64,000 bases of DNA from Nanobdellota archaeon (GCA_034723595.1 JAYEPB010000078.1:9592-73591), one strand, 5' to 3'; counted from the stretch's first letter, positions 1 to 44,196 are shown. Notes: generated from the sequence alone by a model not told the origin. Numbers and translations: made by a program.

Positions 1-41
1 TAGCTGCCTGCTAAAATATTCTCTTTATCAGAGGGTGTCAT
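1..41 (-). CDS. 5' end of a minus-strand gene continuing off the window (begins MTPSDKENILAGS)
   Basis: Reverse complement of 1-41 starts with ATG and stays open to the window edge. No homology signal. Confidence 0.2.
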   Translation of the reverse strand, partial: MTPSDKENILAGS

Positions 42-166
42 ATTGGTTTCCATTTTTCTTTCTTATCATTCAAATTTCTCCTAAACTGGGTAGTGTCATC
101 AAATACTATATAATAACTTTGATTTAAGCGATAAATTTATATACATAAAATTTTTATAAGATATAT

Positions 167-436
167 ATGGCACGACAGGAATCTCTCAAAAGCAAAAAAG
201 CTTCAAAAAATAAATATACTTGTCAGATTGCGGTTCTTATTTTTGTTGTGATTATCCTGGCAGGAGGCATATATCTTGGATTTGGAATGCCTTCAATAAC
301 AGGGCAGGTTACACTAAACGAGCAGGAGTTCAATATATTGACACCATTTGGATTCAATTTTGGGATGCTGATAATTGGAGTAATTGGAGTAATATATGTC
401 ATATTGTTAATATCAAAGGAGAGTGTTGAAAGATAG
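167..436 (+). CDS. small membrane protein (89 aa, two predicted TM segments)
   Basis: ORF with hydrophobic stretches IAVLIFVVIILAGGIYLGF and MLIIGVIGVIYVILLI. No recognisable family. Confidence 0.3.
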   Translation: MARQESLKSKKASKNKYTCQIAVLIFVVIILAGGIYLGFGMPSITGQVTLNEQEFNILTPFGFNFGMLIIGVIGVIYVILLISKESVER

Positions 437-516
437 CAAAGCGCCTCATATCAGGATTTAGGGGATATGTAATCTCTGGTATTATTTTTATCTTATTATT
501 TGCCAGTCTTGCAAGT

Positions 517-750
517 TTGGGATTCTCTAATATGCCTGGTTTATCCAAATTCATGTCAGTTGTTTCTGAAGAGGGGTTCAGCGGAGCTGGTATCACTGGA
601 GCTGTGGTGGCTATTGGTGAAGAGCCGGCTGCAGAAGAAGCAAAACCACCTAATTTAATAAATGTTGCAATACTTCTTATTGGGTTTTCATTTGTGGTAT
701 CGCTCCTTGCGGTAAGGACAATAAATAAGCAAAGCAAATACCGAACTTGA
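517..750 (+). CDS. small membrane protein (77 aa), Gly/Ala-rich then a C-terminal TM helix
   Basis: ORF ends with PPNLINVAILLIGFSFVVSLLAV plus basic residues. The opposite-strand ORF 399-761 looks like a low-complexity shadow. Confidence 0.25.
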   Translation: MGFSNMPGLSKFMSVVSEEGFSGAGITGAVVAIGEEPAAEEAKPPNLINVAILLIGFSFVVSLLAVRTINKQSKYRT

Positions 751-896
751 AAATAAAACACTTTTCTCCAGTAGAAGACTAGAAAAAAGTTTTTTACAGT
801 AGTATCTAAAATATAGAACTCTTATTTCGCAGCACCTTGGCTCATGAGATTCGATACCAATTAAAAAAGGATTTGCATAGCAAATCTTTTTTATAA

Positions 897-13581: not shown

Positions 13582-14741
13582 TTTCAGAAAAATTCAAACA
13601 GTTTGTCGAAAATTTCGATGTAGAAGGATATATTAGAAGATTTGAAGAAAGTGATTATTATAAAGAAAAATTTGTGCCAAAGATAAATAATATGATCAAA
13701 TCTCATTATCAAAGAGAAATAAAAAAAAGAGTAGAAAACTATGAAGGGAATAATTATGTTTATCCTGAATTCAGTAAAGTTAAGATAACGCAAAAAGCTT
13801 TAGATAAAGGGAAGTATATATCAAAAAGAGTTTGTGAATTTGCGGATTCAGATTATGAAATATATATGTATATGATTGGTGATAACTCCAATAAAGAACC
13901 TATCGTAGATGATTTTTATATAGGCATTGATCAAACTGTAGAACCTGATTATTGTAAAATCAGCCCATTCGGTAAAATTCGTACTTCGTATGATATAACA
14001 GATAATTTAGAAAAAAGAATTTTGGGGTGGAGTCATTCTCATGGTTCAATAGACACATTCCATTCTCGTAAAGATAGAAAAAACCTTCAAAAATTTGTCG
14101 CATCATATGGACTTTCTAAAAAGATTGATCTTTTAGACGATGAAGAAGGCGATGACCAATTATTGCATGATGTTTATTATACACCTAGTTTGGTATTTAA
14201 CAAATATATGTGGGAAACTAATATTCTGCCTTTTGCAGGAGTAGCTTTAGATTATACAAAATTTGGTAATAAAAAAAATACGAAATTCCATCTTAATGAT
14301 GATGTGGAGATTGAAGTAATTAAGAGTGATCCATTAACTAAAAAAGAGATGGAAGATATAGATGAAATGATTCTGGATAGAGTTAATCTTAAAGGTTTAG
14401 GTAAACTTAGAGATATTTATGAAAAAAGAACACTTGAGCAAAACTCTCCTATGGATAATGATATATCCTCTATTTTAGAAGAGCATAGTCCTGATTATAA
14501 TTCTTTAGATAAAAGTAGTCTTATAGGTCTGATTAGGAAACAAGAATCAAAATATAAGAGTCTTTTTGAAAAGTATGGAACAATTGTTAAAGATTATAAC
14601 TATTTACAGGATAAATATCATGATTTAAAAAATAAAAATAGTTCATTGAGATCAATTGTTATGAAATGTAAAAAATATATCAAGAATCAGGTCAAACTAA
14701 AAGGAGTTAAGCACCAACGAGAAAATGTCAAAAATAATTGA
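13578..14741 (+). CDS. JAB/MPN+ (JAMM) metallopeptidase, deubiquitinase-like
   Basis: JAMM motif H-x-H-x7-S-x2-D present as HSHGSIDTFHSRKD, with an upstream Glu candidate. ATG at 13578 overlaps the E1 stop (ATGA). The ORF track starts earlier, at a TTG at 13563. Confidence 0.65.
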   Translation: MISEKFKQFVENFDVEGYIRRFEESDYYKEKFVPKINNMIKSHYQREIKKRVENYEGNNYVYPEFSKVKITQKALDKGKYISKRVCEFADSDYEIYMYMIGDNSNKEPIVDDFYIGIDQTVEPDYCKISPFGKIRTSYDITDNLEKRILGWSHSHGSIDTFHSRKDRKNLQKFVASYGLSKKIDLLDDEEGDDQLLHDVYYTPSLVFNKYMWETNILPFAGVALDYTKFGNKKNTKFHLNDDVEIEVIKSDPLTKKEMEDIDEMILDRVNLKGLGKLRDIYEKRTLEQNSPMDNDISSILEEHSPDYNSLDKSSLIGLIRKQESKYKSLFEKYGTIVKDYNYLQDKYHDLKNKNSSLRSIVMKCKKYIKNQVKLKGVKHQRENVKNN

Positions 14742-14790
14742 TCTTGATGAGAGGGTATTGATGTTTTTTAATTAAAATGGGCAGTCCCTT

Positions 14791-16824
14791 ATGATAAGAA
14801 GAAAAATAGAACAAATATTAGCGAATGAAAATAAAAGAATTAATGTAAATAATGTTAATCAAAATAGTCTATCGAATAATCTTCTTGCAGTGTATTTTTT
14901 AGATAATATTCCTGATAAAAATCTTGCTATTGATGATTTGATTATTAATGATTTTTTGTATAAATTTATATCTTCTGAAGAGAAGAATAAGATTTATAAT
15001 CTTAATGAGGTAATCTCAAAATTATCAAAAGTAGATGAGAATCAAGTGAATAAATCAAAGAGTAAGAAAATCTTAATGATCCCTAAAATAAATATCCAAA
15101 TGACCTTAGCGATAGATTCTTATCTTGATTTGATTAAAAATGAAGAATCTTTGGAAATTATAACTGGATTAAAGTCAAAAGATGATTTAAAGGCATTACT
15201 GTTGATTGATAGAATTTCTGGTACTCAGAAGTATAGTGATTTAGAGTTTGTTATTGATAAAAAAGATTGCGTTGAGAAAAATGCGATTATAGCTGCAAAG
15301 TATTCAACAGAACTATCAGCCCTCTCAAAATCAGATTCTAACCTAAAATCTTCATATCAGATATTAAATAATCTTCCATCTGATTTTACTCTGACTGCTA
15401 TAAAACAAATCAAGAAGATAAATCAGGAAGTCACAGATTCCAGTATTGATTATAAAATAATATCAAAGAATCCAAAACTAATAAAAAAGATAAATGCCGT
15501 AAAAGGCAGGTATAATAATTTAAAGAGACGTACAAGCAGCTGGTTGGATAAAGAATTAAATATATACCTTGAAAAGGAATATAAAAAGATTAATTTCAAT
15601 ATATCCAGAATGACAGACCTGGATTTGGCTATTGAAAAGACAGATAATGCTTCCAGGCAGTTGAATAAGATTAAAAATAAATATAAAGCAGCAGGCATAA
15701 CTCCTGCTAAATTTAATAAGAAATATTCTCAGCTTTCTGCCCAGCAAAATAAGCTTAAAAGTTATAATGTATTAAAAAAGGGATTTGTGAAGAATTGCGC
15801 AATAATCAAAAGAGAAAGGCAGCTGATAGAAGATAAAGGGGTAGATGATATTGCTGATTTAGTATCATTAATAAATAAAGAAAAAAACATATTGAATAAT
15901 GCAGATATATCAGAAACAAAGTTTAGTGATTTAGATACTGCTAAGCAGGATTATATCAATGAATCAAAAAGGTTTAAAGATGCAGTAAATCTGGAGATCA
16001 GTTCAATCAAGCAATATTTGAATCATAGCTGTGATATATTGATTGAGAAGGCTGGTAAATATACTGGTCTATCTGGACTTTTTGGTGAGAGAGATAAAGA
16101 ATCATTGGTAGGGTTGAAAGATGAGGCAAAAAGCTTAGCTGATCAGATTTTATTGGTGAAAAAAGAGTTTGGGATACCTGATTATGTGATTCAGAAAAGC
16201 AATGAGCTTAGTAATTTAGTCGATAAACTTATTAAGAAAAATAAGTATACAATTTCTCAAAAGCTAAAGAGAGGTCTTAGTTATAAATATGCAGAAGCTG
16301 GATTGTTGGTTTCTAATTATCTCCCTTCAAAAGAGATTATTGGCGCAAGTGTTTTTTCTAGTTATCTAGAGAATGATAAATATAATATAATTCAAAAAGG
16401 CAATAAGACTATGAGTTTTGAGCAAAATTTGTCAAATCTTCCTCCTATAAATGATTTCAGCAGTGATTATATGGGTAGTTTAAAACAAAGTGACAATAAG
16501 ACTGCAAGAAAAACTTATGGTCTTGCATCAAGTCGCAAAGGGAAGAGACTAATCAATATCTTTGCCGCGGGATTAATATTCTCAATAACTTCTCTTGGGA
16601 TTTATGGGATTGTTAATCCTCAATCAACTTATGTATTGCAAAAGGAAGTAGAAACTATTGAAAAAACTGAAGATTATTCTAGCATCCATAAACCAGAACA
16701 TACAATATATGATTCTACAATTAGGGATATAGATAAGATTGTTGATAAAACGCAAAGAACATATGAATCAACAATAAGAGATTTAAAAAAGATGTTCAAT
16801 GGGAATCTTATAACACCAGATTAA
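14791..16824 (+). CDS. large Lys/Asn-rich coiled-coil protein with a C-terminal TM anchor; last gene of the E1/JAB operon
   Basis: 677 aa of low-complexity helical sequence with one hydrophobic helix near the C-terminus (LINIFAAGLIFSITSLGIYGIV). 50 bp downstream of the JAB gene, same strand. Confidence 0.45.
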   Translation: MIRRKIEQILANENKRINVNNVNQNSLSNNLLAVYFLDNIPDKNLAIDDLIINDFLYKFISSEEKNKIYNLNEVISKLSKVDENQVNKSKSKKILMIPKINIQMTLAIDSYLDLIKNEESLEIITGLKSKDDLKALLLIDRISGTQKYSDLEFVIDKKDCVEKNAIIAAKYSTELSALSKSDSNLKSSYQILNNLPSDFTLTAIKQIKKINQEVTDSSIDYKIISKNPKLIKKINAVKGRYNNLKRRTSSWLDKELNIYLEKEYKKINFNISRMTDLDLAIEKTDNASRQLNKIKNKYKAAGITPAKFNKKYSQLSAQQNKLKSYNVLKKGFVKNCAIIKRERQLIEDKGVDDIADLVSLINKEKNILNNADISETKFSDLDTAKQDYINESKRFKDAVNLEISSIKQYLNHSCDILIEKAGKYTGLSGLFGERDKESLVGLKDEAKSLADQILLVKKEFGIPDYVIQKSNELSNLVDKLIKKNKYTISQKLKRGLSYKYAEAGLLVSNYLPSKEIIGASVFSSYLENDKYNIIQKGNKTMSFEQNLSNLPPINDFSSDYMGSLKQSDNKTARKTYGLASSRKGKRLINIFAAGLIFSITSLGIYGIVNPQSTYVLQKEVETIEKTEDYSSIHKPEHTIYDSTIRDIDKIVDKTQRTYESTIRDLKKMFNGNLITPD

Positions 16825-18512: not shown

Positions 18513-19448
18513 ATGCGCAAGGAATTACACCCTTTTATGAAGCGAAAAGTAGTACGACACGGCTCAGCAACATTGACAATAAGCCTACCTTCAAAATGGG
18601 CAAAAAAGTTTGACATAAAGCAAGGGGATGAACTTGAGATTGAGGAGGAGGGAAGTTCATTAGCTATCTCAACTGAAAAATATTTAAAATTAAATGAATG
18701 TGAATTTGTTATTGATCCTGGAACAATTTCATACATTAGGAGTATTATTAGCAATTCCTATAAGAAAGGATATGATGTAATTAATTTAAAATTTGAAGAA
18801 CCAAATGTAATTGTAACAATTCAAAAAGTTGTTGATGGATTATTAGGATATGAGATAGTTGAACAAGGTCAAGGCTATTGTATTATTAAAAATGTTGCGT
18901 CAGGGCTAGAAACAGAATTTGAGTCTATGTTAAAGAAATCATTCTTTATGACTTTAACAATGGGAGAAATATGTCTTGAGGATATTAATAATAAAAAATT
19001 AAAAAACTATGAAGAAATTCGACAAATGAAAGATAATATAACAAAATTTACGAATTTCTGCAAAAGATTAACTAATAAGGCAAAAAAGAATCTTGACTCA
19101 AATTCATTTGCTTATCTTATTCTCTGGAGTTTAGAAAAGATTGCTAATGAATATAAATATATCTATCGTTATTTGTCTAAACATACAACAAATCAATTAT
19201 CAAAAAAAACATTGGATTATTTTAAGAATACAAATCAATTATTAAGGTTATATTTTGATGGATTTTATAAGAAAGATAATAAGATGATTAAAAATATTAC
19301 AACACTTAAAGATCAATATTTATATAAAGATTTATATGATGTATTAAAACAAACAAAACACCTAGATTCTGTTGTAATCCACCATCTTGCTAATATTATT
19401 AGAAGAGTATATGATATGACTGGTCCTTATTTTGGCATTTATCTCTAA
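18513..19448 (+). CDS. putative regulator with an N-terminal AbrB/SpoVT-type swapped-hairpin domain
   Basis: VVRHGSATLTISLPSKWAKKFDIKQGDELEI resembles AbrB/MazE-like DNA-binding barrels. The rest is helical and unassigned. Confidence 0.35.
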   Translation: MRKELHPFMKRKVVRHGSATLTISLPSKWAKKFDIKQGDELEIEEEGSSLAISTEKYLKLNECEFVIDPGTISYIRSIISNSYKKGYDVINLKFEEPNVIVTIQKVVDGLLGYEIVEQGQGYCIIKNVASGLETEFESMLKKSFFMTLTMGEICLEDINNKKLKNYEEIRQMKDNITKFTNFCKRLTNKAKKNLDSNSFAYLILWSLEKIANEYKYIYRYLSKHTTNQLSKKTLDYFKNTNQLLRLYFDGFYKKDNKMIKNITTLKDQYLYKDLYDVLKQTKHLDSVVIHHLANIIRRVYDMTGPYFGIYL

Positions 19449-22297
19449 ATCTTGTTTTTCAAAGCAACTAATTCATCTTCAACCTGCTGCATAGAATCAT
19501 ATCTTTTTTTAGGATTATATTCCAGGCATTTCATAATAACGCTTGCTAAATGAGGATTTATCTCTGGTTTTATATCCTGAAGACTCTTAGCTCTTAATTC
19601 TCCTTCATAAACCCCCTCTGCGAATTTAGTCTTATCTCCTTGTATATCCTGATAACTAATGGGTTTTTGTCCAGTCAAAGATTCATAAAGTAACACGCCA
19701 AAGCTATACTGGTCTGCTTTCTTGGTAGGAGATTCTCCACCAAGAATCCTTTCCGGAGCAGTATATTCTCTTACTCCTTTGATAGTACTTTGAGATTCTT
19801 TAAATCTTGAAAATGCTAAGTCCAAAAGAAATACCAACCCATTTCTGGCAACAATAACATTATCTTTTTTAATATCATTATGTGTAAATCCTTTTGTATG
19901 GATATAATTTAAAGAATATGCAGTTTTGGCAAAAACTTCAATTATTTCTTCTTCTGGTCGTTCTTGAGTGAAATATTGTTCAAATGTTTTTCCTTCAATA
20001 TATTCAGATATTAAACCAAGTGATTCTTTATCATTTAATTTCATTCTTTGGCTGCCTAAAAATTGTGGTAATGGTCTATATTGATAATTCTTAAAGTCAT
20101 CTCTAGACCTTGAAATTGTTTTGCTGTTTATTCTTTTTTCTTCCTTACTAATTTCATTAAGAGCTTTATCGATAGAGCCATATTTCTTAATTATTTTATC
20201 AACATTATCATTATCTAAATTTTTTGAAGGTAACTTTAAAATTTTAATAAAATCATCTTCAGTTTCATCCTGATCTCTTATTAAATAAATATTACTCCAC
20301 CCTCCATTTGTGAACTTATGAAGGATATCATAATCATCAATTTCAATCAGTGAACATTCTTTGAGTTCTTCAGATGATATACATTTATTTTCTTTTAAAA
20401 TTTGATTTAAATTTTTATAGTTCACATGTTTATTATGGACCAATTCTGTCAATTCAGAGATGATTTGCTCTTCAGTTTTATTCTGGGAGTATTTAGAATC
20501 AAGATAACTTTTAATAAATTCATATCCTTCATCTTCGATTGGTTTTATTTCAGGGGTGTTGACTGTTTCGGCAAGGTATCTTATTGATTTTGCAATTTCA
20601 CGAATAGAATGCATAGCATTAATTTTTTTTCTAAATGAATCTTTCTTATAAGACTGGATTCCTTTGTTATATAGTTCTAAAAACAAAGTTGGATTAATAT
20701 ATGCTAATTTGCCAAAACATTGATTAAATTTACTCTTATCAGGTTCCATAACTTCATCCCCCATCAATTCCCAATAATATTTATTTGCAGTTATAGAATC
20801 TTGCTCATAAAGATTAGGCAAATAATTAATCATATTCTGTTTTATCTTAGCATTTCCATTACCCCATAATTTTTTAAATAACTTCTTTGCAAACTTTTTA
20901 TTGGCTTGGAATAATTGTGGAAATACTTCTAAAACACTTAAGTTAACATCTTCCTCAGGATCTTTAATAGCTTTATAAAATAATTTTGATGCTAATATAG
21001 GATTTATTTCAAATAACTTGCCTAATGAATTAGCAGTGCCTCTTCTAACACTAGAATCATTATTGGCCATTCCTGCCAAATATAATTGTTCTAATTCATT
21101 ATTAGTCTGAAAATTAAGATAATCTATTTTAGTACTAATTAAATATCTTATGTGCTTCTGAAAACAACTTTCGCCTTCAGATATATCTTCAATTCCATTT
21201 TTATAATACTCAAAAGCCTTTCCAGGGCAGATATTAGAAATAGCAGAGAAGGAACTAAGAGTGTCCTTTTCCATACCAAAATTCCCTGTTAAACCATCTT
21301 CAAAATAAGTAACTGCAGTTTTAGGATTTACTTTAATTAAAGCATCAAGATGACCATAAAATGAAGATTTTATATCCTCATCAATAGTTTTCCCACCATT
21401 TTTCATTACATTCTCAAATAAAGTCTCTAAATATGTGGGTTGATACTTAGCTAATCTATTCAGAATTTCTCCTAATTCTCTTTCACTTAATTTATTCTTT
21501 GAAAATGTTTTCGTATAAATAATTGTCTTATCAATAACTTGTTTAGCTAATTCGAAATCTTTTGGAATCAAAGATTTAACTACTTCATGTAAATTATTTT
21601 CATAATCTAAGTAATCTTCATGAGATATTGCCATAGAGATTAAATCTTTTGTCAATTTAGGATTTGAAGCATAAGTATCTTTCAGGGATTTAATTAAATA
21701 CTGCCTTCCAGGCACTACATCTCCTGTTAAATCAGGGTCTGAAAAAAGCATATTAAATATTTTTTTAGATATCTTATGCCTATATTTTTTATCCAACATA
21801 GATTCATTTTTAATAAAATATCTATGAGCACCACATAAAAAAGGGCTAAGAGACCTCACAAATAAATTATTTTTATCCTTTATGTTTGGCTTATCTGCCA
21901 ATACCATTAATTTATTGTACATATATGATAAGGATTCATCATCACATTTCAAGAGAGAAGAGACTGCATATTCATTGATACCAGAAAGATATTGTTCTTT
22001 AGAAGAACCAACATAAAAACCCAAAGCTAATTTGGGATTAAATTTTATGAGCGCATCTAAGGATTCTACAAGCATTTCTTGTATATTCTTATTTTTAGTT
22101 TGCCAACCCTCTATATACAATTGACTAACTATTCGTTTTCTCCGTTCCCTTTCAATTTTATCTAATATTCTAGATTTTTGCTTAGAGTTCAAGCTAGAAT
22201 AAGATTCTTCAACACTAGACTCTAAAGATGCATGATTTTGACTCATATCCCATAGGAAGTGATAAAGAGTATTTAAATGTTTCTGTTTAGTTATCAC
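19445..22297 (-). CDS. eukaryote-like Ser/Thr protein kinase with a long N-terminal HEAT/ARM-type repeat region
   Basis: C-terminal about 300 aa with a Gly loop NGGWSNIY, Lys in IKILK, catalytic loop HNDIKKDN, DLA (DFG-like), APE and DQYSFGVLLYE. The N-terminal 600 aa has recurring repeats of the form (I/V)NP..A..(L/F)(Y/F)..(G/A)(I/L). Confidence 0.7.
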   Translation of the reverse strand: MITKQKHLNTLYHFLWDMSQNHASLESSVEESYSSLNSKQKSRILDKIERERRKRIVSQLYIEGWQTKNKNIQEMLVESLDALIKFNPKLALGFYVGSSKEQYLSGINEYAVSSLLKCDDESLSYMYNKLMVLADKPNIKDKNNLFVRSLSPFLCGAHRYFIKNESMLDKKYRHKISKKIFNMLFSDPDLTGDVVPGRQYLIKSLKDTYASNPKLTKDLISMAISHEDYLDYENNLHEVVKSLIPKDFELAKQVIDKTIIYTKTFSKNKLSERELGEILNRLAKYQPTYLETLFENVMKNGGKTIDEDIKSSFYGHLDALIKVNPKTAVTYFEDGLTGNFGMEKDTLSSFSAISNICPGKAFEYYKNGIEDISEGESCFQKHIRYLISTKIDYLNFQTNNELEQLYLAGMANNDSSVRRGTANSLGKLFEINPILASKLFYKAIKDPEEDVNLSVLEVFPQLFQANKKFAKKLFKKLWGNGNAKIKQNMINYLPNLYEQDSITANKYYWELMGDEVMEPDKSKFNQCFGKLAYINPTLFLELYNKGIQSYKKDSFRKKINAMHSIREIAKSIRYLAETVNTPEIKPIEDEGYEFIKSYLDSKYSQNKTEEQIISELTELVHNKHVNYKNLNQILKENKCISSEELKECSLIEIDDYDILHKFTNGGWSNIYLIRDQDETEDDFIKILKLPSKNLDNDNVDKIIKKYGSIDKALNEISKEEKRINSKTISRSRDDFKNYQYRPLPQFLGSQRMKLNDKESLGLISEYIEGKTFEQYFTQERPEEEIIEVFAKTAYSLNYIHTKGFTHNDIKKDNVIVARNGLVFLLDLAFSRFKESQSTIKGVREYTAPERILGGESPTKKADQYSFGVLLYESLTGQKPISYQDIQGDKTKFAEGVYEGELRAKSLQDIKPEINPHLASVIMKCLEYNPKKRYDSMQQVEDELVALKNKI

Positions 22298-23878: not shown

Positions 23879-25564
23879 ATGAGAAAGAAGCAGTTGTTAA
23901 TATTCCCTATTGTATTTAGTATATTATCTTCTATTGTATTTGCTGCGCAAAAGAACTGGCTAAAAGTCTTGCTTGAACCATTCTTTGGCTGGAATATCGC
24001 AGCAACATATCAGCAGGCTGCTTCATTTATTGATTTCGTATTATACATATTCATTTTTCTATACATTACAAGATACGCTATATCAAAACGATTTGAAGGA
24101 GCGACTGCAAAAAGTCTTAGTGTTGTTATAGCAATTGTGCTTGCCGTAGGTATGTCTGTTTTTGAAAGGATGTTTGATTTTAACCTTGGGAAGCTTGCCC
24201 CTCTTGCTGGCCTTATATTATTCGCGGTCATCGCAATGATAGCGTTCAATGTCATCAAGGGATTTGGAGCAGGAAGTGCAAGTGCAGGAGCATGGGCTTA
24301 TCTTCTGCTTTATGGGATTCTGAGCGCAACTGCATCAAAATATCTTACCTGGTTGTATGATAAAGTTCCATTCTTTGAAGGCATTCTTTATATTGGCGTG
24401 ATTATTTCTATATTTGGCATACTTAAAGGTCTTTGGTCTATTGTGCCTATCACAGGAGGTCAGACAACTGGAGCAGGCAAAAAATTGTGGGATATTACTA
24501 AGAAAGGCGCCTCAGGAGTCAAAGGCACACTTGATTCATGGAAGGAAAAGAGGCGGCAGAAGATTGCAGCTAAAGAACAAGAGATAAGAAACACCAAAGC
24601 AGCAATAAGCAGAATAGAAACTGATATAAATAATCTAGGAGATATTAGTGATAAGTTATGGGAAAAAGATGAATATCTTCAGAAAGAGAAACAGGAAAGA
24701 TTGAGATTATTAAGTAATGAATATAATCGTATACGATCAATTAATCAAGAGATTAACAGAATAAATAATTCAATCCAAACCTTCCGTGAGATGGATAGAT
24801 TTGGAAATGATAAAAGAGTAGCAGAAGCAGAACAGAAACTGACTGATTATAATCAAAAAGTTCAACAGTATTTGACAGAATTATCACATATCATTATAGA
24901 ATTAACTTCTTTTATCGATGAAGAGAAAAATAATCTAAGAAATCAAATTAGAGAATCAAATGAAACAAATGCAAGATTAAATGAAAAGATTAATCAGTCT
25001 AAAATGCTAATAACAGAACTTAAAAATGAATTAAAAGATATTTCAAGATTACTTCAAACTGAGAAAGATAAAAATAAAAAATCTGAATTAGAAAATAAAT
25101 CAAAAGTTATTCAAAAGAATATTAAAGAAGTGAAAGATGAAGAGAAAAAGGTCGTTAAAACCTTAAAGATAGAAACAGAAAAAAAGAAAAATATGGAAAA
25201 AGCAATTGACAAAGCAGTTGAAGAGACAAATAAATTCAAAGAGCTTGAAGAATTAGTAAAAGAAATTGATGGTATAATCAAAGGAAAAAAATACAAAAAA
25301 AGAGTTCTGAAGTTGCCCCAAACAGCCTCTGCTCAAAAAAAAGTGCTTAAAGCAGAGATTCAGAAATTGCATGAGACATATAAGACAAAACAAGATATTT
25401 TTTTCGAAAAGATGAATAAACTATACAAAATAGACAAACAATATAATGGTTTCCATAATAAAATCAGAGACTTAAATAAAGAGTTAAAGGTATTAGAGAA
25501 GGCAGGATCACCGGATGACGAAGAGAAGATAAAAATATTCCAAAAGTCATTTCCTAAAAAATAA
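23879..25564 (+). CDS. membrane-anchored coiled-coil protein, paralog 1 (multi-TM N-domain plus a long K/E-rich coiled coil)
   Basis: N-terminal about 190 aa with 4-5 TM helices and a conserved LLEPFFGWNIAATYQQAASFIDFVLY block, followed by about 350 aa of heptad-rich charged sequence. Confidence 0.55.
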   Translation: MRKKQLLIFPIVFSILSSIVFAAQKNWLKVLLEPFFGWNIAATYQQAASFIDFVLYIFIFLYITRYAISKRFEGATAKSLSVVIAIVLAVGMSVFERMFDFNLGKLAPLAGLILFAVIAMIAFNVIKGFGAGSASAGAWAYLLLYGILSATASKYLTWLYDKVPFFEGILYIGVIISIFGILKGLWSIVPITGGQTTGAGKKLWDITKKGASGVKGTLDSWKEKRRQKIAAKEQEIRNTKAAISRIETDINNLGDISDKLWEKDEYLQKEKQERLRLLSNEYNRIRSINQEINRINNSIQTFREMDRFGNDKRVAEAEQKLTDYNQKVQQYLTELSHIIIELTSFIDEEKNNLRNQIRESNETNARLNEKINQSKMLITELKNELKDISRLLQTEKDKNKKSELENKSKVIQKNIKEVKDEEKKVVKTLKIETEKKKNMEKAIDKAVEETNKFKELEELVKEIDGIIKGKKYKKRVLKLPQTASAQKKVLKAEIQKLHETYKTKQDIFFEKMNKLYKIDKQYNGFHNKIRDLNKELKVLEKAGSPDDEEKIKIFQKSFPKK

Positions 25565-26893
25565 TTGGCTAAAACTATGGCGTTTGCATCTAACATATTG
25601 GACAGATTATTAGAGCCTTTTTTTGGCTGGAATATAGCAGGAACATATCAGAGTGCTTCACAATTCATAGATTTTGTCCTTTATCTTATTTTCTTCATAT
25701 CAGTTACGCGTTTTGCGTTAGCAAAAAGATTTGATGCAAAGACGCAGAGACCCATTACTATCATGTTAGGCATTGCTCTTGCGATAGGGATGTCATTCTT
25801 TGGAATGAGATGGGGATTTAGCATAGGTGATTTAGCGCCTTTGGCAGGATTATTATTTTTGTTTGTGCTTGGCATGATGTTCTTTAAACTTATCAAAGAC
25901 ATGGGTGATAGCGCCCCAGGAGCAGGAGCATTTGCATTCCTTCTTATCTTCTTTTCAATGACTGCAATAGTGCCAAGCTTCTACAGCTGGATAATTCAAA
26001 AAGTCCCATTTCTAGAGGCTCTGCTTTCTATAGGTGTAATTTTGGCAGTGTTTATAGCTGTGAAAGAGATGTTTGGGCTTATAACTGGTGGAGGAGGGGC
26101 AAAAGCAGATGGGGATATGGGTTTGAGTGATAGCCAAGAATATCTGAAGAAGAAAGAAAAGAAAAAAAGAGAAATTGTTGAAAAAGGAGTTGAAAGATTA
26201 AGGCAAGAAGCTGATGAAGTAAGAGAAAAGGCCGCAGTTGCAAAGACTCCAGAGGAGAAAAAAGCATATAAAAAAAAAGCAGATGATAATAGGGCAAAGG
26301 CTGATGAGAAGTTGGAAGATGAACTAACTTCAAGAGGTTCTATTGGAGGTATTCCAGTTAGATCAAGGTTATCTAGTGCAGAACTAATAAAAAGAAGAAA
26401 AGAATACCTCAAAAGGTTAGAAGACCTTGAAAAAGAGAAATTGGAAGAAATAGAAACAATTAAAAAAGAATTAATAGAATTTCAAGAAAAATTAGAACAA
26501 ATGAACCTACGGAATTATGAAGATTTATCAGATGGAAATAAGGAAATCTACATAGATATAGGAAGGAATATTCAAAATAAATTATTAAAATTAGTAAATA
26601 CTTTGTTTAAACTTGAAAAATGTGAAATTAAAGACTTAGAATTTCTGAAAAAATTAAGATATAATGTTGATACTAGGCAAATATCAAGATTTTATTTAAA
26701 CATAATCGGCAATGAAGAGATGATAAAGAAGGAATATAATTTAGTTATGCTTGTAAAAAGATTTTCAGAGAAGATAGTTAAAATTATGGAAGAACAAAAT
26801 AAGATTCCTCATCTCCCTGGATTAATTTCAAGAATAATACAAGTAGTTGATAAATTAAAAGAAATCAATGAAGAGTCATTAAGTAGATTATGA
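25565..26893 (+). CDS. membrane-anchored coiled-coil protein, paralog 2
   Basis: Same architecture and the same LLEPFFGWNIAGTYQSASQFIDFVLY block. Likely true start is the ATG at 25577 (MAFASNIL). Confidence 0.55.
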   Translation: MAKTMAFASNILDRLLEPFFGWNIAGTYQSASQFIDFVLYLIFFISVTRFALAKRFDAKTQRPITIMLGIALAIGMSFFGMRWGFSIGDLAPLAGLLFLFVLGMMFFKLIKDMGDSAPGAGAFAFLLIFFSMTAIVPSFYSWIIQKVPFLEALLSIGVILAVFIAVKEMFGLITGGGGAKADGDMGLSDSQEYLKKKEKKKREIVEKGVERLRQEADEVREKAAVAKTPEEKKAYKKKADDNRAKADEKLEDELTSRGSIGGIPVRSRLSSAELIKRRKEYLKRLEDLEKEKLEEIETIKKELIEFQEKLEQMNLRNYEDLSDGNKEIYIDIGRNIQNKLLKLVNTLFKLEKCEIKDLEFLKKLRYNVDTRQISRFYLNIIGNEEMIKKEYNLVMLVKRFSEKIVKIMEEQNKIPHLPGLISRIIQVVDKLKEINEESLSRL

Positions 26894-28101: not shown

Positions 28102-28650
28102 TCAGCTAATCTTAGCCTTAACTTTCTCAAATCCAAAAGCAAGAATTCCTCCGGATATCACAGTTATCCATTGCATAATGCCCATTGCGCTAAGGAATAT
28201 AACTGGCAGAAATCCGAATTTAAACATTACAAAAGCTGCTATGAATAAGAATATTGATTTAACAGCAGCCCCAATAATTAAAGCAGAAAAATAATCCCAT
28301 TTCTTATGTATATTCAAGAACTTGAATGCACCCACTAACAGGCTGTTTCCAATCCAAATAAAAGCAATCATATAAATCAAGAATGGGGTAAAACTTCCAA
28401 AAATCAATCCAGCAGCCAATACACCAAGTGAGGGGAGCATAATTACAGGCAGTAATTTGTAGCCTTTGACGCTCATGGCAGCACTTATAAGCATAGCATT
28501 TACAATAGTTCCAACAAGCCATTGCGGATGCGCCAGCATGAAAGGCAGGAAGAAACCTGCTAAGGAATATAGCACAACTTCTATTGCCTCATGTCTTATG
28601 CTCCATTTGTATCTCTGAAGGTTTGCAAGTTTGTTAATATTGATATACAT
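28102..28650 (-). CDS. polytopic integral membrane protein (about 6 TM), family unassigned
   Basis: Hydrophobic throughout; could be an ECF/S-component-like transporter subunit, but no motif was verified. Confidence 0.4.
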   Translation of the reverse strand: MYININKLANLQRYKWSIRHEAIEVVLYSLAGFFLPFMLAHPQWLVGTIVNAMLISAAMSVKGYKLLPVIMLPSLGVLAAGLIFGSFTPFLIYMIAFIWIGNSLLVGAFKFLNIHKKWDYFSALIIGAAVKSIFLFIAAFVMFKFGFLPVIFLSAMGIMQWITVISGGILAFGFEKVKAKIS

Positions 28651-28738
28651 ATATGTTAATATTAAATGAACTTATATTTAAAAACTTCGTTTTGCTTTTT
28701 TAGAAAATTATTTAAATGCCGCTATTCTGTAGGCACTT

Positions 28739-29179
28739 ATGCCTGATAAACTTGATAAAATAATTGAGAATAAGAAACTGCTGCTTCCAATCCTGACTGA
28801 AATTCAGGACAAATACGGCTATATCTCTGAATCTGTTGTCAGGCAGCTCAGTAAAAAGATAAATATACCTATGGCTGAGATATATGGTGTTGCTACATTT
28901 TATTCATTCCTTTCTACAAAGCCACAGGGCAAGAACATAATTCACATCTGCAATAGTCCATCATGCTATCTTAATGGTTCGCTTGATATAATCAGATTCC
29001 TTGAAAAAGAACTAGGTATAAAATCTGGTGAAACAACTGATGACAAGCTGTTTTCGCTGCATATAGGCTCATGCATTGGATGCTGTGATAAGGCTCCTGC
29101 TATGCTTGTCAATGGAAAATTGTATTCAGATCTAACAAAAAGAAAGATGAGGGTAATCATACAAAAATGCAGATCCTAG
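28739..29179 (+). CDS. NuoE/HoxE/HndA-like [2Fe-2S] thioredoxin-like subunit of an NAD(P)H-dependent hydrogenase
   Basis: Cys pattern CNSPSC ... SCIGCC typical of the 24-kDa subunit family. Immediately upstream of, and overlapping, the NuoF-like gene. Confidence 0.8.
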   Translation: MPDKLDKIIENKKLLLPILTEIQDKYGYISESVVRQLSKKINIPMAEIYGVATFYSFLSTKPQGKNIIHICNSPSCYLNGSLDIIRFLEKELGIKSGETTDDKLFSLHIGSCIGCCDKAPAMLVNGKLYSDLTKRKMRVIIQKCRS

Positions 29180-30288
29180 AGAAATCAGAACTTAAAGCCT
29201 GGGAAAAGGCAAATGCTATGAAGCCAGAAGAAGTAATTGCATTGCTTAATGATAAGGGTCTGACTGGTCGTGGTGGAGCATGCTTTCCTGCAGGAAAGAA
29301 ATGGGGATTTGCATTGGATGCTGAAGGAGATGAGAAATTTGTCATATGCAATGCTGATGAAGGTGAGCCAGGAACATTCAAGGACAGATTTATAATCGAA
29401 AATAATCCTGAAACTCTTATTGAAGGTATATTGATAGCATGTAATACAGTAGGGGCAAAGCAGGCATATATCTATTTAAGAAGAGAATACAGGTATCTTG
29501 AATTTGACCTTAACAAAATCATAAAAAAAGTTATAAAACAAGCAGATACAGACATCAGCATAGAAATTGTTCTTGGGGCTGGAGCTTATATCTGCGGTGA
29601 AGAGACAGCAATAATAAATTCAATTGAAGGGAAAAGAGGCCAGCCATATTACAAGCCGCCTTTTCCTGCTGTCAAGGGTCTGTTCGGGAAGCCTACTGTA
29701 ATCAATAATGTAGAGACTCTTGCAAATGTTCCTCTTGCAATAATCAAAAAAGATTGGGATTCAAGCCTTAGGCTTTTTTCTCTTTCAGGGAATCTGAAAA
29801 AGCCAGGAGTATATGAACTGTCATTAGGGACATCTTTTAATGCAATTGCGCAGTTTGGCAAACCTGAAAAAAAGCTAAAAGCAATTTATTTCGGCTGTGC
29901 AGGGGGATGTATTCCTTTTAATCAGAAACATAAGATAGATACTGAGGTAATTAATTCAACTGGATGCATGCTTGGTTCATGCACAATGATTGTTGTTGAT
30001 GAAAGCCAAAGCATAGTTGATGTTGCAGTAAACATAGCAAAATTCTTTGAATATGAATCATGCGGCAAATGCACACCATGCAGAGAAGGCAATATGAGGG
30101 TTCTTGCGCTGCTGGAGAAGATATCGCTGGGATATGCCAATATGGAAGATATTGCACTTCTTGAGGAGTTGTGCTGTGTGATAAAGGACAGCTCATTGTG
30201 CGGGCTTGGGCAAAGCTCAACAATTCATCTATTAACTGCATTGAAACATTTTAGGGAGGAATTTGAAGAAAAATGCAAATCACGCTGA
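29167..30288 (+). CDS. NuoF/HoxF/HndC-like flavoprotein subunit (NAD(P)H and FMN binding, 4Fe-4S)
   Basis: GRGGACFPAGKKWG NADH-binding glycine motif, FMN-binding region and an ESCGKCTPCREG 4Fe-4S motif. Confidence 0.85.
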   Translation: MQILEKSELKAWEKANAMKPEEVIALLNDKGLTGRGGACFPAGKKWGFALDAEGDEKFVICNADEGEPGTFKDRFIIENNPETLIEGILIACNTVGAKQAYIYLRREYRYLEFDLNKIIKKVIKQADTDISIEIVLGAGAYICGEETAIINSIEGKRGQPYYKPPFPAVKGLFGKPTVINNVETLANVPLAIIKKDWDSSLRLFSLSGNLKKPGVYELSLGTSFNAIAQFGKPEKKLKAIYFGCAGGCIPFNQKHKIDTEVINSTGCMLGSCTMIVVDESQSIVDVAVNIAKFFEYESCGKCTPCREGNMRVLALLEKISLGYANMEDIALLEELCCVIKDSSLCGLGQSSTIHLLTALKHFREEFEEKCKSR

Positions 30289-31946
30289 ACAAAAAAAAGA
30301 TAGAGTGTGAAAAAGGAAAGACAATCCTTGATATCGCAAAAGAAAAAGGAATAAGAATCCCTACATTATGCTATCAGGAAGATTTCCATCCTGAAGCAAG
30401 ATGCAGGATATGTCTTGTTGAAGTAAATGGGAAACTTATGCCAGCTTGTTCTACCCATGTATGGGAAGGGATGGTTATTGAGACAGATACTGAAAAAGTG
30501 AAAAAAACAAGGCGCATGAACCTTGAGCTGATGATGGCAGACCATCAGAAAGCATGTTTTATTGAAAGCAGGACGCATGAGTTGTGCAGGATTGTTGCAG
30601 AAGAAGAAATAGGTAACATCAGATTCGAGCCTGTAAAAAAACATACTCCAGACATAAAAGGAAGGGCTGTAGTAAGGGATCCAAATAAGTGCATCAGCTG
30701 CGGCAGATGTGTCCAGGCATGCAGAGATACGCAGAATATTACTGCAATAGATTTCGCCCATAGAGGTCATAGGGAGAAAGTCACACCTTATTTTGGAAAG
30801 AGCCTGAATGAGGTATATTGCATAAAGTGCGGGCAATGTATACTCAGCTGTCCAGTAGAAGCTATTGTGGAACAGAGCCATATTGATATTGTAGTCCAGC
30901 ATCTTGCTGATCTTAAGAAACATGTTGTTGTCCAGACAGCTCCTGCGATAAGGGCATCATTAGGAGAAGAATTTGGCTATAAGCCTGGCATGCTTGTAAA
31001 AGGCAAGATGGTGGCAGCTGCAAAAGCTTTGGGATTTGATAAAGTATTTGACACAAACACAGGCGCAGACCTTACAATAATTGAAGAGGCAAATGAACTG
31101 CTTGAAAGAGTCAAAAACAATAAGCCTCTGCCTATGTTTACATCATGCTGTCCAGCCTGGGTTAAGTATATCGAGCACTTCAGGCATGATCTTATACCTC
31201 ATCTTTCAACATGCAAGAGTCCTCATGAGATGCTTGGAGCAGTAGTCAAGACATATTATGCAGAAAAGGCAGGCATAAACGCAGATGATATTGTCATGGT
31301 CAGCATTATGCCATGCACTGCAAAGAAGTTTGAGGCATCAAGAGAAAAGCTGAAAGGTAATGTAGATTATGTTCTTACAACAAGGGAATTCGCTAAGCTT
31401 ATCAAGATGAAGAATATTGATTTTGGTAAGCTTGGTGACGAGACATTTGATGATCCATTAGGCATATCTACTGGAGCAGGAGCAATTTTCGGAGCAACAG
31501 GCGGAGTGATGGAAGCTGCGCTAAGGACAGCTTATGAGACAGCTACAGGCAAAAGCCTGACAAAGATAGAATTTGATCAGGTAAGGGGTGTAGCTGGAAT
31601 AAAGAAAGGGTCTATATTTCTGAATGACCTTGAAGTTAAATTTGCAGTGGCGCATGGCATGATGAATGCATGCAATCTTATTGAGTCATACAAAGATTTT
31701 CATTTTATTGAGGTTATGGCATGTCCTGGCGGATGCATAGGCGGAGGAGGTCAGCCAATCCCAACAACATGGGATATCAGGCAAAAAAGGATAAATGCAA
31801 TCTATGAAGAGGATAGGAACCTGCCTCTCAGGAAATCGCATGAAAACCCTGCTTTGAAAAAAGTATATGAGGAATTCTTAGGAGATGCAGGCGGGCATAA
31901 GGCTCATGAATTGCTGCATACTGGGTATGTTAAGAGGGGGTTGTGA
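30273..31946 (+). CDS. hydA: [FeFe]-hydrogenase catalytic subunit HydA (N-terminal 2Fe-2S and 4Fe-4S ferredoxin domains plus the H-cluster domain)
   Basis: H-cluster signatures L1 TSCCPAW, L2 MPCTAKKFE and L3 EVMACPGGCIGGGGQP are all present. N-terminal plant-type ferredoxin Cys pattern and two CxxCxxCxxxCP motifs. Confidence 0.85.
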   Translation: MQITLNKKKIECEKGKTILDIAKEKGIRIPTLCYQEDFHPEARCRICLVEVNGKLMPACSTHVWEGMVIETDTEKVKKTRRMNLELMMADHQKACFIESRTHELCRIVAEEEIGNIRFEPVKKHTPDIKGRAVVRDPNKCISCGRCVQACRDTQNITAIDFAHRGHREKVTPYFGKSLNEVYCIKCGQCILSCPVEAIVEQSHIDIVVQHLADLKKHVVVQTAPAIRASLGEEFGYKPGMLVKGKMVAAAKALGFDKVFDTNTGADLTIIEEANELLERVKNNKPLPMFTSCCPAWVKYIEHFRHDLIPHLSTCKSPHEMLGAVVKTYYAEKAGINADDIVMVSIMPCTAKKFEASREKLKGNVDYVLTTREFAKLIKMKNIDFGKLGDETFDDPLGISTGAGAIFGATGGVMEAALRTAYETATGKSLTKIEFDQVRGVAGIKKGSIFLNDLEVKFAVAHGMMNACNLIESYKDFHFIEVMACPGGCIGGGGQPIPTTWDIRQKRINAIYEEDRNLPLRKSHENPALKKVYEEFLGDAGGHKAHELLHTGYVKRGL

Positions 31947-42666: not shown

Positions 42667-44196
42667 TCATTTCTTTTTTCTGATGATGAACAATCCACCC
42701 AATACAGCAATCAATCCCAATCCTAAAGTTATTGTACTGAATTCAGGGATATCAGTAGGAGATACAATCTTTGTATCATTTGCTTCCAATGTCACAAAGT
42801 TTGCTGATGAGCAGGTAACATTATATTCATGTGTTCCAGCTGCTGCAAATGATTTTGTGTAGTTATAATCAGGACTATTAAAATCCATTGTGTACCATGT
42901 TCCTTCGTCATCAAATGTGATATTGCATTCACCAGAGATAGGAGTTCCATCAGTTGAATTAATGTATTCTGCTGTGAATTCAATTGAGTCTAATGCATAT
43001 TTGATTCCTGCTTCTGCTTCTATTGTAAGGTTAGCATCTGCACCTGCTGCAAATCCTGTAAAATGAGCAACATCAACTGTTAATGTGCTTCCTTCGCATT
43101 GGATGTTTGTGCATAATGACTCTGGGCAGCGCTGATTTTCGCTAAGGATTGATGCAAATGTGCTTGCAGTCTTTGAATAGAACACATAAGGCTTATTGCA
43201 GTCAACATTATAGAATGTGAGTGTTGCTGAGTCATTGAAGGATGAGTGCAAAGCTGAGGAATTTACAAAGATAACCTTGTCTTCTATTTTTATATGCGCG
43301 TCATAATCTTCGCCATCTGAATTGATTCCATGATCCTCTGCAAACTGGATTTTGCCTTTCCCTGTTTTTGCAAGAGTCAGGTTTGTTACGTTTGTCACAT
43401 CAACTGCTGAGAAGTTGGTTGTTTCTGTGGATGTGAAGTTTGTGTAGGTTGGCTCATTTGAAGCAGCTGCTGCGCTGTAAGGAATATTTGGCGGCGTGAA
43501 GCCATCACCTTCAGGATCATACATAAGATCATTCGAATCTTCTGTTCTAGCTATACCTTTTGAAATTCTTACCTCATCAAGGTATGCTGCATGATATCTT
43601 AATAATGTTATGTATTCATTAGATGATGTCAGACTATAATCAAATATATCAGACCTCTCTTCTATGCCATCAATATACGCTTTAAGCACGCTGCTTGCTC
43701 TAACAAAAGCAACATGATGCCAGTTACCATCATTAACTCCTGGTGGTAAATTAAACTCTGTCGTATGCTCAGAACCAGCAATATAAGACCTGAATCTCAC
43801 TAGGCCATTTGAGAATGTAATACCCCAATAATCATCACCACCACCAGAATATATTATTTCTGCAAAATTTGAAGCTAGTGTGTTAATCCAAAAATCAATC
43901 GTAAAATCATCTGCCCCAAGAACATTAACACCACTCACATATCTAATCTGAATAGAATTAGCATTCAGGGCACTAGCAGTTAAAGAACTTTGGCCAAATT
44001 TAGATTTCGTAGTTGAATGTCGTGCATCTCCAGTTCCATATATGTTGATTGCAGTCTCACTAGCATCTTCAATGTTAGTGCTTCCATCTTGATGATCTGA
44101 ATGGACAAGGAGTATAGTAAACTCGTCATTACCGCCAGCCAATACAAAACTTCCCAAAAGAAGCCCCATAGCAATCATCAATATTATCTTTTTCAT
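42667..44196 (-). CDS. secreted surface glycoprotein with a LamG/ConA-like lectin head, a shared stalk module and a PEF-CTERM archaeosortase anchor
   Basis: N-terminal signal peptide. LamG-like block (IDFWINTLASNF...GNWHHVAFVRASSVLKAYIDG). Many N-x-S/T sequons. C-terminus DIPEFSTITLGLGLIAVLGGLFIIRKKK. Confidence 0.6.
   Translation of the reverse strand: MKKIILMIAMGLLLGSFVLAGGNDEFTILLVHSDHQDGSTNIEDASETAINIYGTGDARHSTTKSKFGQSSLTASALNANSIQIRYVSGVNVLGADDFTIDFWINTLASNFAEIIYSGGGDDYWGITFSNGLVRFRSYIAGSEHTTEFNLPPGVNDGNWHHVAFVRASSVLKAYIDGIEERSDIFDYSLTSSNEYITLLRYHAAYLDEVRISKGIARTEDSNDLMYDPEGDGFTPPNIPYSAAAASNEPTYTNFTSTETTNFSAVDVTNVTNLTLAKTGKGKIQFAEDHGINSDGEDYDAHIKIEDKVIFVNSSALHSSFNDSATLTFYNVDCNKPYVFYSKTASTFASILSENQRCPESLCTNIQCEGSTLTVDVAHFTGFAAGADANLTIEAEAGIKYALDSIEFTAEYINSTDGTPISGECNITFDDEGTWYTMDFNSPDYNYTKSFAAAGTHEYNVTCSSANFVTLEANDTKIVSPTDIPEFSTITLGLGLIAVLGGLFIIRKKK

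Follow-up and report, generated by a model that had tools for sequence, protein, structure and literature searches.

[FeFe] hydrogenases have been reported in 130 archaeal genomes (Greening et al. 2024, Cell, PMC11216029). The commonest archaeal type in that study is a 'group A3' enzyme with HydB and HydC (n = 44), found in at least six DPANN phyla and explicitly in Woesearchaeales, and since the full HydEFG maturase set was present in few of these genomes (5 of 130), an alternative maturation pathway was proposed by the authors. The operon analysed here, hydC-hydB-hydA, lies on the + strand at positions 28739-31946 of a 64,000-nucleotide stretch of DNA from Nanobdellota archaeon (GCA_034723595.1, JAYEPB010000078.1:9592-73591); this whole stretch is called the window below, and coordinates refer to it unless another locus is named. 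The operon is a further member of the archaeal HydABC class published in 2024, with which it shares an origin in Woesearchaeales/Nanoarchaeota, the gene order, the lack of HydEFG and an associated uncharacterised membrane gene of 4-6 helices, hyd6TM. An earlier note on this DNA had implied that the finding was new; this has been overtaken, since both the presence of HydABC in Woesearchaeales and the usual lack of HydEFG among archaea with such enzymes were published in 2024 (PMC11216029). Many Woesearchaeota HydA proteins of ~60% identity are also held at NCBI, together with Nanoarchaeota fragments at 95%.

Homologous A, B and C subunits are found in the bifurcating HydABC enzymes of the Bfu family (T. 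maritima 7P5H, A. woodii 7Q4V, T. kivui 8A6T), which is defined by a ferredoxin-type 4Fe-4S domain and clusters B2-B5 (Schut et al. 2022, PMC9304861). The C-terminal ferredoxin-type 2x[4Fe-4S] domain of BfuB/HydB (IPR017896) holds clusters B3/B4 (PMC9304861, PMC9499530), and all characterised bifurcating hydrogenases possess it (PMC9499530). The Hyd1ABC enzyme of Syntrophomonas wolfei is likewise an alpha-beta-gamma set, is without the Bfu-defining features and does not interact with ferredoxin (PMC9304861); residue and domain discriminators between bifurcating and non-bifurcating beta subunits were given by Losey et al. 2020 (PMC7311640). A non-bifurcating complex of NuoE/NuoF with HydA is reported for an anaerobic fungus in PMC13556243, and the hydrogenosomal 24/51-kDa plus HydA systems of anaerobic eukaryotes can be grouped with NuoE/NuoF as a further likeness to the present locus.

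Three open reading frames (ORFs) were found exactly where the earlier note had placed its three genes. hydC (28739..29179, + strand) encodes a NuoE-like thioredoxin-fold [2Fe-2S] subunit of 146 amino acids (aa), recognised by PF01257 (E 7e-47) and NF005722 (143 bits, cutoff 141), with C71, C76, C112 and C115/C116 as candidate [2Fe-2S] ligands. hydB (29167..30288, +) encodes a minimal NuoF-like flavin mononucleotide (FMN)/NADH subunit of 373 aa (PF01512 and PF10589), and hydA (30273..31946, +) the [FeFe]-hydrogenase catalytic subunit of 557 aa (PF02906 at E 8e-95, PF02256, PF13510 and 2x Fer4). All three reading frames are intact, and the overlapping gene boundaries that had been described amount to 13 nt between hydC and hydB and 16 nt between hydB and hydA; the Pfam and NCBIfam assignments likewise bear out the NuoE-NuoF-HydA trimeric type of the operon. 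The locus fits a trimeric NuoE/NuoF-associated [FeFe] hydrogenase (HydDB group A3 sensu lato; NCBIfam NF040763), and the same arrangement is kept in loci L002, L003, L005, L010, L013, L081, L082, L085 and L086. Together with hyd6TM (28102..28650, - strand), which encodes a six-helix membrane protein of 182 aa and diverges from hydC across an intergenic region of 88 bp (28651..28738), the operon forms a four-gene unit that is real and intact.

The part of the earlier note that did not hold is its description of the complex as bifurcating-type, NAD(P)H- and ferredoxin-linked: HydB is without the ferredoxin-side Fe-S domains and is in the non-bifurcating state at all published diagnostic positions. 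The protein aligns solely with the core (chain residues ~141-522) of bifurcating beta subunits ~600 aa long, the alignment beginning at chain residue ~141-177. The N-terminal [2Fe-2S] domain is not present, just 33 Cys-free residues preceding the GRGG motif, and neither is the C-terminal 2x[4Fe-4S] domain, as 76 residues follow SCGxCxxC and no Fer4 Pfam match was obtained. Past the point 80 residues after SCGxCxxC, bifurcating HydB partners carry ~154 residues with 10-11 Cys, whereas the window HydB carries none. It has a single [4Fe-4S] site (C299, C302, C305, C345). No separate ferredoxin module was found near the operon, other ferredoxin-type motifs in the window being confined to a FAD-oxidase/CCG cluster at 49.5-51.8 kb, and a split-off ferredoxin module serving the operon was therefore rejected.

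Residue-level alignments with NfnB, NiFe-HydB, A. woodii HydB and 9BOV_B gave the same result. At the NADH site, HydB has EGEPGTFKD (29359..29385, +; T70 and K72), the non-bifurcating state, against PGAFMD in these four proteins; in the FMN loop it has GAGAYICGEETA (29575..29610, +; GAGAY, the NuoF-type Tyr) against GAGAFVCGEETA (GAGAF); and in the SLBB region it has FG-CAGGCIP (29890..29916, +), where the bifurcating type has GGPSGGCIP. The FMN-loop column was defined as GAGA[Y/F] from our own alignments and used in place of 'position 367' of Losey et al., a numbering that was unmapped without the T. maritima sequence. The column K[LV][FY]xxSG was tried as a discriminator and dropped as uninformative, Phe being found in Aquifex NuoF too. 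HydB thus shows the four non-bifurcating features of Losey et al. 2020 (no added Fe-S domains, T and K at the NADH site, where the criteria allow T/S and K/S/A, Tyr near FMN, no GGPSG) and none of the sequence features by which the Bfu family is recognised (C-terminal ferredoxin-type domain, N-terminal [2Fe-2S], PGAFMD/GAGAF/GGPSG), all of which separates it from the beta subunits of 7P5H, 7Q4V and 8A6T. In domain content and flavin-site residues it is the same as NuoF (Aquifex 6HL2, Thermus Nqo1/2), the PGTFKD and GAGAYICGEETA states being shared with the Aquifex protein. It differs from NuoF in being ~25 residues shorter, via loop deletions, and in having an H-cluster subunit as its partner in place of NuoG and a membrane arm.

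The typing was extended to the HydBs encoded beside HydA in 72 loci. All bifurcating residue states were carried by the six partner HydBs that have the Cys-rich C-terminal extension (~154 residues), and the remaining ones, every DPANN-clade HydB included, showed the non-bifurcating states without exception, so that residue criteria and domain architecture co-segregate perfectly in this sample. The NCBIfam name 'NADH-dependent [FeFe] hydrogenase, group A6', attached to NF040763, was at one point taken as support for the absence of bifurcation and was dropped after calibration: HydAs with a bifurcating-type partner HydB score 871-892 bits on this model, and because it scores such proteins well the label is no evidence either way.

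With a HydB that has no ferredoxin-side clusters and NuoF-type flavin residues, the enzyme is predicted to be non-bifurcating, NADH-dependent and ferredoxin-independent, of the S. wolfei Hyd1ABC type, a reading that is considered likely from the sequence. Enzymes of that type resemble the one encoded here in their alpha-beta-gamma composition and in a beta subunit that has no extra Fe-S domains, carries T/S and K in its NADH site and a Tyr in its FMN loop, and lacks GGPSG; they convert NADH to H2 without ferredoxin, as is predicted here. They differ in being bacterial, in having short HydBs of ~390-410 aa (373 aa in the window), in often having hydFGE next door, and in the altered H-C-H-C site described below, which belongs to the window HydA.

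Several observations weigh against this reading, and most of them have been counted in favour of a true bifurcating or confurcating group A3 HydABC, in which NADH and reduced ferredoxin would be oxidised together and ferredoxin would dock elsewhere, for instance at the His/Cys site or the N-terminal [2Fe-2S] of HydA. The published class is group A3: archaeal HydABC enzymes are treated in PMC11216029 as bifurcating, AlphaFold modelling is said there to support HydABC-like trimers, and the terms non-bifurcating and NADH-dependent are never used. The gene order hydC-hydB-hydA and the subunit families match HydABC. The closest solved HydA structures come from bifurcating enzymes, the first being T. 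kivui HydA1 (590 bits over the full length), and the window HydA is nearer to these (A. woodii, 548 bits) than to CpI (455 bits). The score of HydB against bifurcating beta subunits (NfnB, 318 bits) is a little above that against the NuoF of Aquifex (297 bits). In a neighbour-joining (NJ) tree built without S. wolfei and Nqo1 references, archaeal HydB forms its own clade (100/100), for which no bacterial sister group was identified, and lies as far from bacterial bifurcating HydBs (1.06) as from bacterial non-bifurcating ones (1.07); phylogeny thus does not put it in the characterised non-bifurcating clade.

Two clade-specific sites could also offer another place for a redox partner. In HydB, C244 and C267 (SLBB region, 29890-29980) are nearly invariant; an extra 4-Cys cluster in this region was considered and rejected, since C248 and C272 vary and only the C244/C267 pair is conserved. 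In HydA, a 2-residue deletion found in all 126 DPANN-clade sequences turns the (Cys)3His [4Fe-4S] motif H-x3-C-x2-C-x5-C into the position pattern H-x3-C-x6-H-x2-C, represented in the window by H91-x3-C95-x6-H102-x2-C105 (30543..30587, +). The resulting H-C-H-C pattern is found in 84 of the 126 sequences, with C95 and C105 nearly invariant, and the canonical HCCC in 62 of 62 bacterial HydAs. H91, C95, H102 and C105 may form a 2His/2Cys metal or cluster site. Against joint oxidation of ferredoxin stand the four published discriminators, all of which give the non-bifurcating state, the absence from HydB of the ferredoxin-type 4Fe-4S domain and B2-B5 clusters that the Bfu definition requires, the missing C-terminal domain common to all characterised bifurcating hydrogenases, and the lack of a separate ferredoxin module near the operon. 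A bifurcating enzyme is accordingly rated as unlikely.

HydA was tested for membership of group A using the motifs L1 (TSCCPxW), L2 (MPCxxKxxE) and L3 (ExMxCxxGCxxGGGQP), the four H-cluster Cys ligands and the proton-relay Cys. The three H-cluster motifs reported by the earlier note are all present: L1 TSCCPAW at 31140..31160 (+, aa 290-296), L2 MPCTAKKFE at 31308..31334 (+, aa 346-354) and L3 EVMACPGGCIGGGGQP at 31710..31757 (+, aa 480-495). The N-terminal ferredoxin domains of that description were found as PF13510 and 2x Fer4, and by motifs, ligands, Pfam and TIGR02512 (509 bits, cutoff 406) the protein is a group A [FeFe] hydrogenase; it also passes NF040763 (789.9 bits, cutoff 765). Its order is an N-terminal [2Fe-2S] domain, the altered His/Cys site, 2x[4Fe-4S], the H-domain and a small-subunit-like C-terminus, and in the alignment the ligands of the N-terminal [2Fe-2S], of both [4Fe-4S] clusters and of the H-cluster are complete. 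As a separate observation, TSCSPGW replaces TSCCPxW in 61 of the 62 bacterial HydAs (from loci in the range L004-L080), with Ser at the position of the Cys that ligates [4Fe-4S]H, and the canonical CC is kept in the DPANN clade and T. kivui HydA1; the bacterial set was obtained from a contig scan seeded on patterns (e.g. WVKYIEHF) and is biased to one HydA subfamily.

Maturases were searched using HydF, HydG and HydE probes from a bacterial locus, verified by NCBIfam (521, 493 and 346 bits; models TIGR03918, TIGR03955 and TIGR03956). No match was obtained at E <= 1e-3 in any ORF of at least 60 aa in all frames of the window, as the earlier note had stated for these 64 kb, and the probes gave no match in 15 DPANN-clade loci; in the bacterial loci, maturases were found within 10 kb of hydA in 16-22 of 74, with all three in 14. 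The sole CX3CX2C motif of the window lies in a radical-SAM ORF (59155-60231), which was rejected as a hidden HydE or HydG, its best matches reaching at most 50 bits against cutoffs of at least 151 bits. The absence of maturases from 64 kb says little on the whole genome, though it is in line with what has been published. In L092, a metagenome locus seeded on hyd6TM, a HydG fragment (257 bits) was observed at the contig edge (-1..781), on the same contig as hyd6TM and a hydCBA operon with short HydB, and some members of the clade may thus keep a maturase.

These counts, and the full maturase set in just 5 of the 130 archaeal genomes (PMC11216029), would fit a hydrogenase that is catalytically inactive here, its H-cluster never completed without HydEFG and the operon a relic or given over to a sensory or Fe-S redox role. 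Sensory hydrogenases typically alter the proton-relay Cys of TSCCP. In the window HydA this residue is retained and the overlapping reading frames are intact, and the H-cluster ligands and motifs are invariant in 126 clade members diverged to ~55-60% identity, which points to purifying selection on catalysis. Active enzyme was moreover obtained from the closed, maturase-free genome of 'Ca. F. multitransposorum', and the maturase-free 'Ca. P. syntrophicum' is hydrogenogenic (PMC11216029). Loss of activity is accordingly regarded as highly improbable.

The contig belongs to the chromosome of a DPANN archaeon of Nanoarchaeota/Woesearchaeota type, in agreement with the archaeal genome of the earlier note; whether it bins to a bacterium, a doubt raised there, was looked at, and it does not. 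Genes for rRNA, tRNA, Rfam RNA and ribosomal proteins are absent from the 64-kb window, and the assignment was made using protein-coding genes. No exact copy of HydA was found in an assembly index; the closest HydA is a 95%-identical fragment (L001) binned as a Nanoarchaeota metagenome-assembled genome (MAG), and the best match of MutS, encoded 17 kb from the operon, is 95% identical and also labelled Nanoarchaeota, the named MutS matches among the top 120 being all Nanoarchaeota, Woesearchaeota or Nanoarchaeia. The identity ladders of the two proteins are parallel (MutS 95/88/74/64/60%, HydA 95/83/73/62/60%), which would follow from divergence of the two along with the genome. The genes at 12.1-31.9 kb are matched one by one, in the same order, in a separately assembled 96-kb contig (L082), in which the same junctions recur (182-aa gene, 561-aa gene, ThiF block) and which continues into diphthamide synthase and aIF-1A. 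In L086, a 1.0-Mb Woesearchaeota contig, the operon hydC(136)-hydB(370)-hydA(557) is flanked by Rpb7/Spt4/S24e/S27e and RpoN/S9/L13/RpoD/S11/S4/S13/EF2/L24e/S28e/L7Ae. The window itself encodes an archaeal-type KaiC (KaiC_arch), TrmB, several Lrp/AsnC and an AbrB-type regulator.

The start sites have a layout of the archaeal leaderless promoter type, although this is suggestive only, the boxes lying in AT-rich DNA. The intergenic region contains a TATA-like box TTATTTAAAT at 28708-28717, centred ~26 nt upstream of the hydC ATG, and on the minus strand a second one, TTTAAATA, at 28675-28682, ~28 nt upstream of the hyd6TM ATG. Direct reading of the sequence gave no Shine-Dalgarno sequence before the hydC and hyd6TM starts; within the operon, hydB has GAGGG and hydA has GGGAGGA ahead of its start. 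Bacterial sigma-70 promoters were rejected, since the promoter scan found 12 sigma-70-like sites, fewer than the 16.4 expected by chance.

Phylogeny was inferred on 188 HydA sequences, including the 62 bacterial loci (NJ, 30 bootstraps). The window HydA groups with P0001-P0007 in 30/30 bootstraps, and the 120 best database matches together with the DPANN genome loci (Micrarchaeota, Pacearchaeota, Diapherotrites and a Woesearchaeota-like contig) form a single clade to the exclusion of the bacterial loci, again in 30/30; the nearest bacterial HydAs are just 49-53% identical. The protein thus stands in a well-supported DPANN-dominated clade, and not inside a recent bacterial contaminant clade, the outcome that the earlier note had named as refuting. 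A few members of the DPANN-dominated clade are bacterial. One of them, L085 (a 193-kb contig, ENA ZHAN22-2_SAMN18200500 scaffold_14), carries a DPANN-clade unit hydC(136)-hydB(370)-hydA(556) with hyd6TM in a bacterial context, with ribosome recycling factor (RRF), EF-Ts and LptF/LptG and the NCBI label Desulfuromonadales, which implies that inter-domain transfer of the four-gene unit has occurred. Two loci labelled Methanosarcinales were also observed: the HydA of L020 (JAIWAR010000015.1, a MAG) clusters with Omnitrophota and Planctomycetes and has hydF/G/E adjoining, and that of L002 is identical in aligned columns to the Woesearchaeota-clade protein P0085. These labels look like mis-binning, or else transfer.

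The G + C content of the hyd cluster (36-42%) exceeds that of its immediate neighbours (26-30%), and this excess was rejected as a sign of recent horizontal transfer, since third-codon-position G + C (GC3) in the hyd genes (0.31-0.36) matches that of MutS, UvrD, KaiC and FAD oxidase of the same window (0.36-0.41). As observed across the window, gene GC3 is bimodal, with values of 0.31-0.41 (hyd, MutS, UvrD, KaiC, FAD oxidase) and of 0.17-0.26 (Lrp, polyprenyl synthase, ThiF, kinase, radical-SAM). That the cluster is bacterial DNA, joined in a chimeric contig or acquired in a very recent bacterial transfer, as its raw G + C content and the bacterial context of L085 could suggest, can hardly be credited in view of this GC3, the junctions shared with L082, the divergence of HydA following that of MutS, the archaeal core genes around the operon in L086 and the archaeal-type start-site layout.

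The 182-aa gene is probably the 'hyd6TM' of PMC11216029, matched by legend description and genomic context and not by sequence; in that paper the name is given in two figure legends and is absent from the text discussion. No Pfam match was found for it, and no family at E <= 1 is common to 37 members of its own family, which comprises ~119 clusters, all of ~180 aa, with all named members in Woesearchaeota/Nanoarchaeota. Homologues flank hydCBA in L082 (7837-8391), L086 (7857-8399), L003, L010 and the bacterial L085 (11685-12419). In L088 the homologue (6001-6531) is immediately upstream of a minimal HydA of 349 aa, and in L089 (6001-6579), a bacterial contig with L31, S2 and EF-Ts, immediately upstream of an H-domain protein of 263 aa. 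Linkage was assessed on 80 metagenome loci seeded on hyd6TM, 16 of which have at least 2.5 kb on both sides; a HydA gene lies within 5 kb in 11 of these 16, among the partners in metagenome loci are both short HydB and the long HydB of bifurcating type, and hyd6TM is unlinked to a hydrogenase in L087 and five other loci. The gene thus tracks HydA over three architectures, being linked to trimers that have a short HydB, to trimers that have a long one and to minimal HydAs of 263-349 aa.

The AlphaFold2 model of the protein (pLDDT 91.5, pTM 0.87) has six long helices, and its only consistent Foldseek neighbours are S-components of energy-coupling factor (ECF) transporters (RibU, ThiT, PanT and 5EDL, an unnamed S-component). 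TM-scores are 0.64/0.67 with RibU and 0.50-0.67 over the S-components overall, with probabilities of 0.95-0.99 and weak E-values (0.07-0.6). The protein tentatively models as an S-component-like fold, and its ~180 aa and six transmembrane helices are those of RibU (5KBW), ThiT (4MUU/3RLB), PanT (4RFS) and BioY (4DVE), from which it differs by the absence of a sequence-level family match and by its genomic linkage to [FeFe] hydrogenase genes. EcfT or ABC (EcfA) genes were not called in the flanks of L082 and L085-L089. Invariant polar residues in the helices are Q43, N51, W99, N102, K131, Q160 and T163.

Since hyd6TM tracks HydA and not HydB or HydC, a flavin importer is unlikely as the common denominator, and it may be speculated that the membrane protein supplies something HydA needs. 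It could belong to the alternative maturation pathway, capturing or taking up from the host or the environment a precursor of the H-cluster or some other cofactor of HydA; this idea is drawn from the association with HydA across the three architectures, the movement of the gene with the operon into bacteria and its confinement to lineages mostly without HydEFG, and is itself considered quite improbable. If it were true, hyd6TM would allow an active hydrogenase to be made in DPANN archaea and in bacteria of small genome that have no HydEFG.

The predicted NADH-dependent enzyme would be soluble and heterotrimeric, an [FeFe] hydrogenase with its diaphorase module cut to the NuoE/NuoF minimum. What the analysis shows directly are the genes and their domains, the ligand sets and diagnostic residues, the archaeal surroundings, the clade and the lack of linked maturases; which cofactors are loaded, how electrons flow, that NADH is the specific substrate, that bifurcation is lacking and in which direction the enzyme works in the cell are predictions. 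Electrons would enter from NADH to the FMN of HydB and its single [4Fe-4S], and would then pass through the N-terminal [2Fe-2S] of HydA and two [4Fe-4S] to the H-cluster, where H2 would be formed, the [2Fe-2S] of HydC being off-path, as N1a in complex I. According to PMC7311640, formation of H2 from NADH is favourable only at very low H2 partial pressure, of a few to tens of Pa. Such a requirement would fit a fermentative symbiont living beside H2 consumers, and at higher H2 the reaction might run in reverse.

Other features of the window were also noted. A conserved block with large unknown proteins (10212-16824, +; L082 1-4170) includes an E1-like ThiF/MoeB protein with a duplicated adenylation domain and a weak match to an anti-phage Cap2-like model (12100-13581), and a 392-aa protein (13563-14741) without Pfam match, in which an apparent JAB/MPN-like motif (WSHSHGS...S..D) was read by eye; the block may represent an island for ubiquitin-like conjugation or for defence. 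A 950-aa protein (19445-22297, -) carries at its C-terminus a Ser/Thr kinase domain of eukaryotic type (PF00069, E 4e-30), preceded by a long N-terminal region without Pfam match. Tandem paralogues at 23879-25564 and 25565-26893 (+), of which L082 has one copy, have no Pfam match and share a membrane domain at the N-terminus (LLEPFFGWNIA.TYQ...), after which come long stretches rich in Lys and Glu, coiled-coil-like by eye. Two tandem paralogous secreted or surface proteins (42667-44196 and 44193-45851, -), of higher G + C content than their neighbours and without family match, end in 'D/IPEFS...hydrophobic...RKK' tails resembling archaeal PEF-CTERM sorting signals. The three-gene cluster at 49509-51815 (-) encodes a 2x[4Fe-4S] ferredoxin-like protein (127 aa), a FAD-linked oxidase (PF01565/PF02913) and a protein with a CCG domain (PF02754); its likeness is to glycolate or D-lactate dehydrogenase (GlcD/GlcF-like), and it may supply reducing equivalents.

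The locus alone is ordinary, and the main value of the analysis lies in a corrected mechanistic label for the clade and in the flagging of hyd6TM as a candidate for the maturation route. If hyd6TM were involved, archaeal H-cluster assembly without HydEFG would become experimentally approachable. Better supported than this idea is the reading, based on HydB sequences, that the whole DPANN 'A3' clade is probably non-bifurcating, its HydBs lacking every mark of bifurcation used here, unlike the labelling of PMC11216029; no work combining DPANN, hydrogenase and non-bifurcating was found in the papers that could be searched. Published metabolic reconstructions would then change, as DPANN metabolic models assume that ferredoxin and NADH are reoxidised jointly by confurcation. 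An NADH-only enzyme would require very low ambient H2 and would leave the ferredoxin of pyruvate:ferredoxin oxidoreductase in need of another sink, and both would imply a tighter tie of these archaea to H2-consuming partners.

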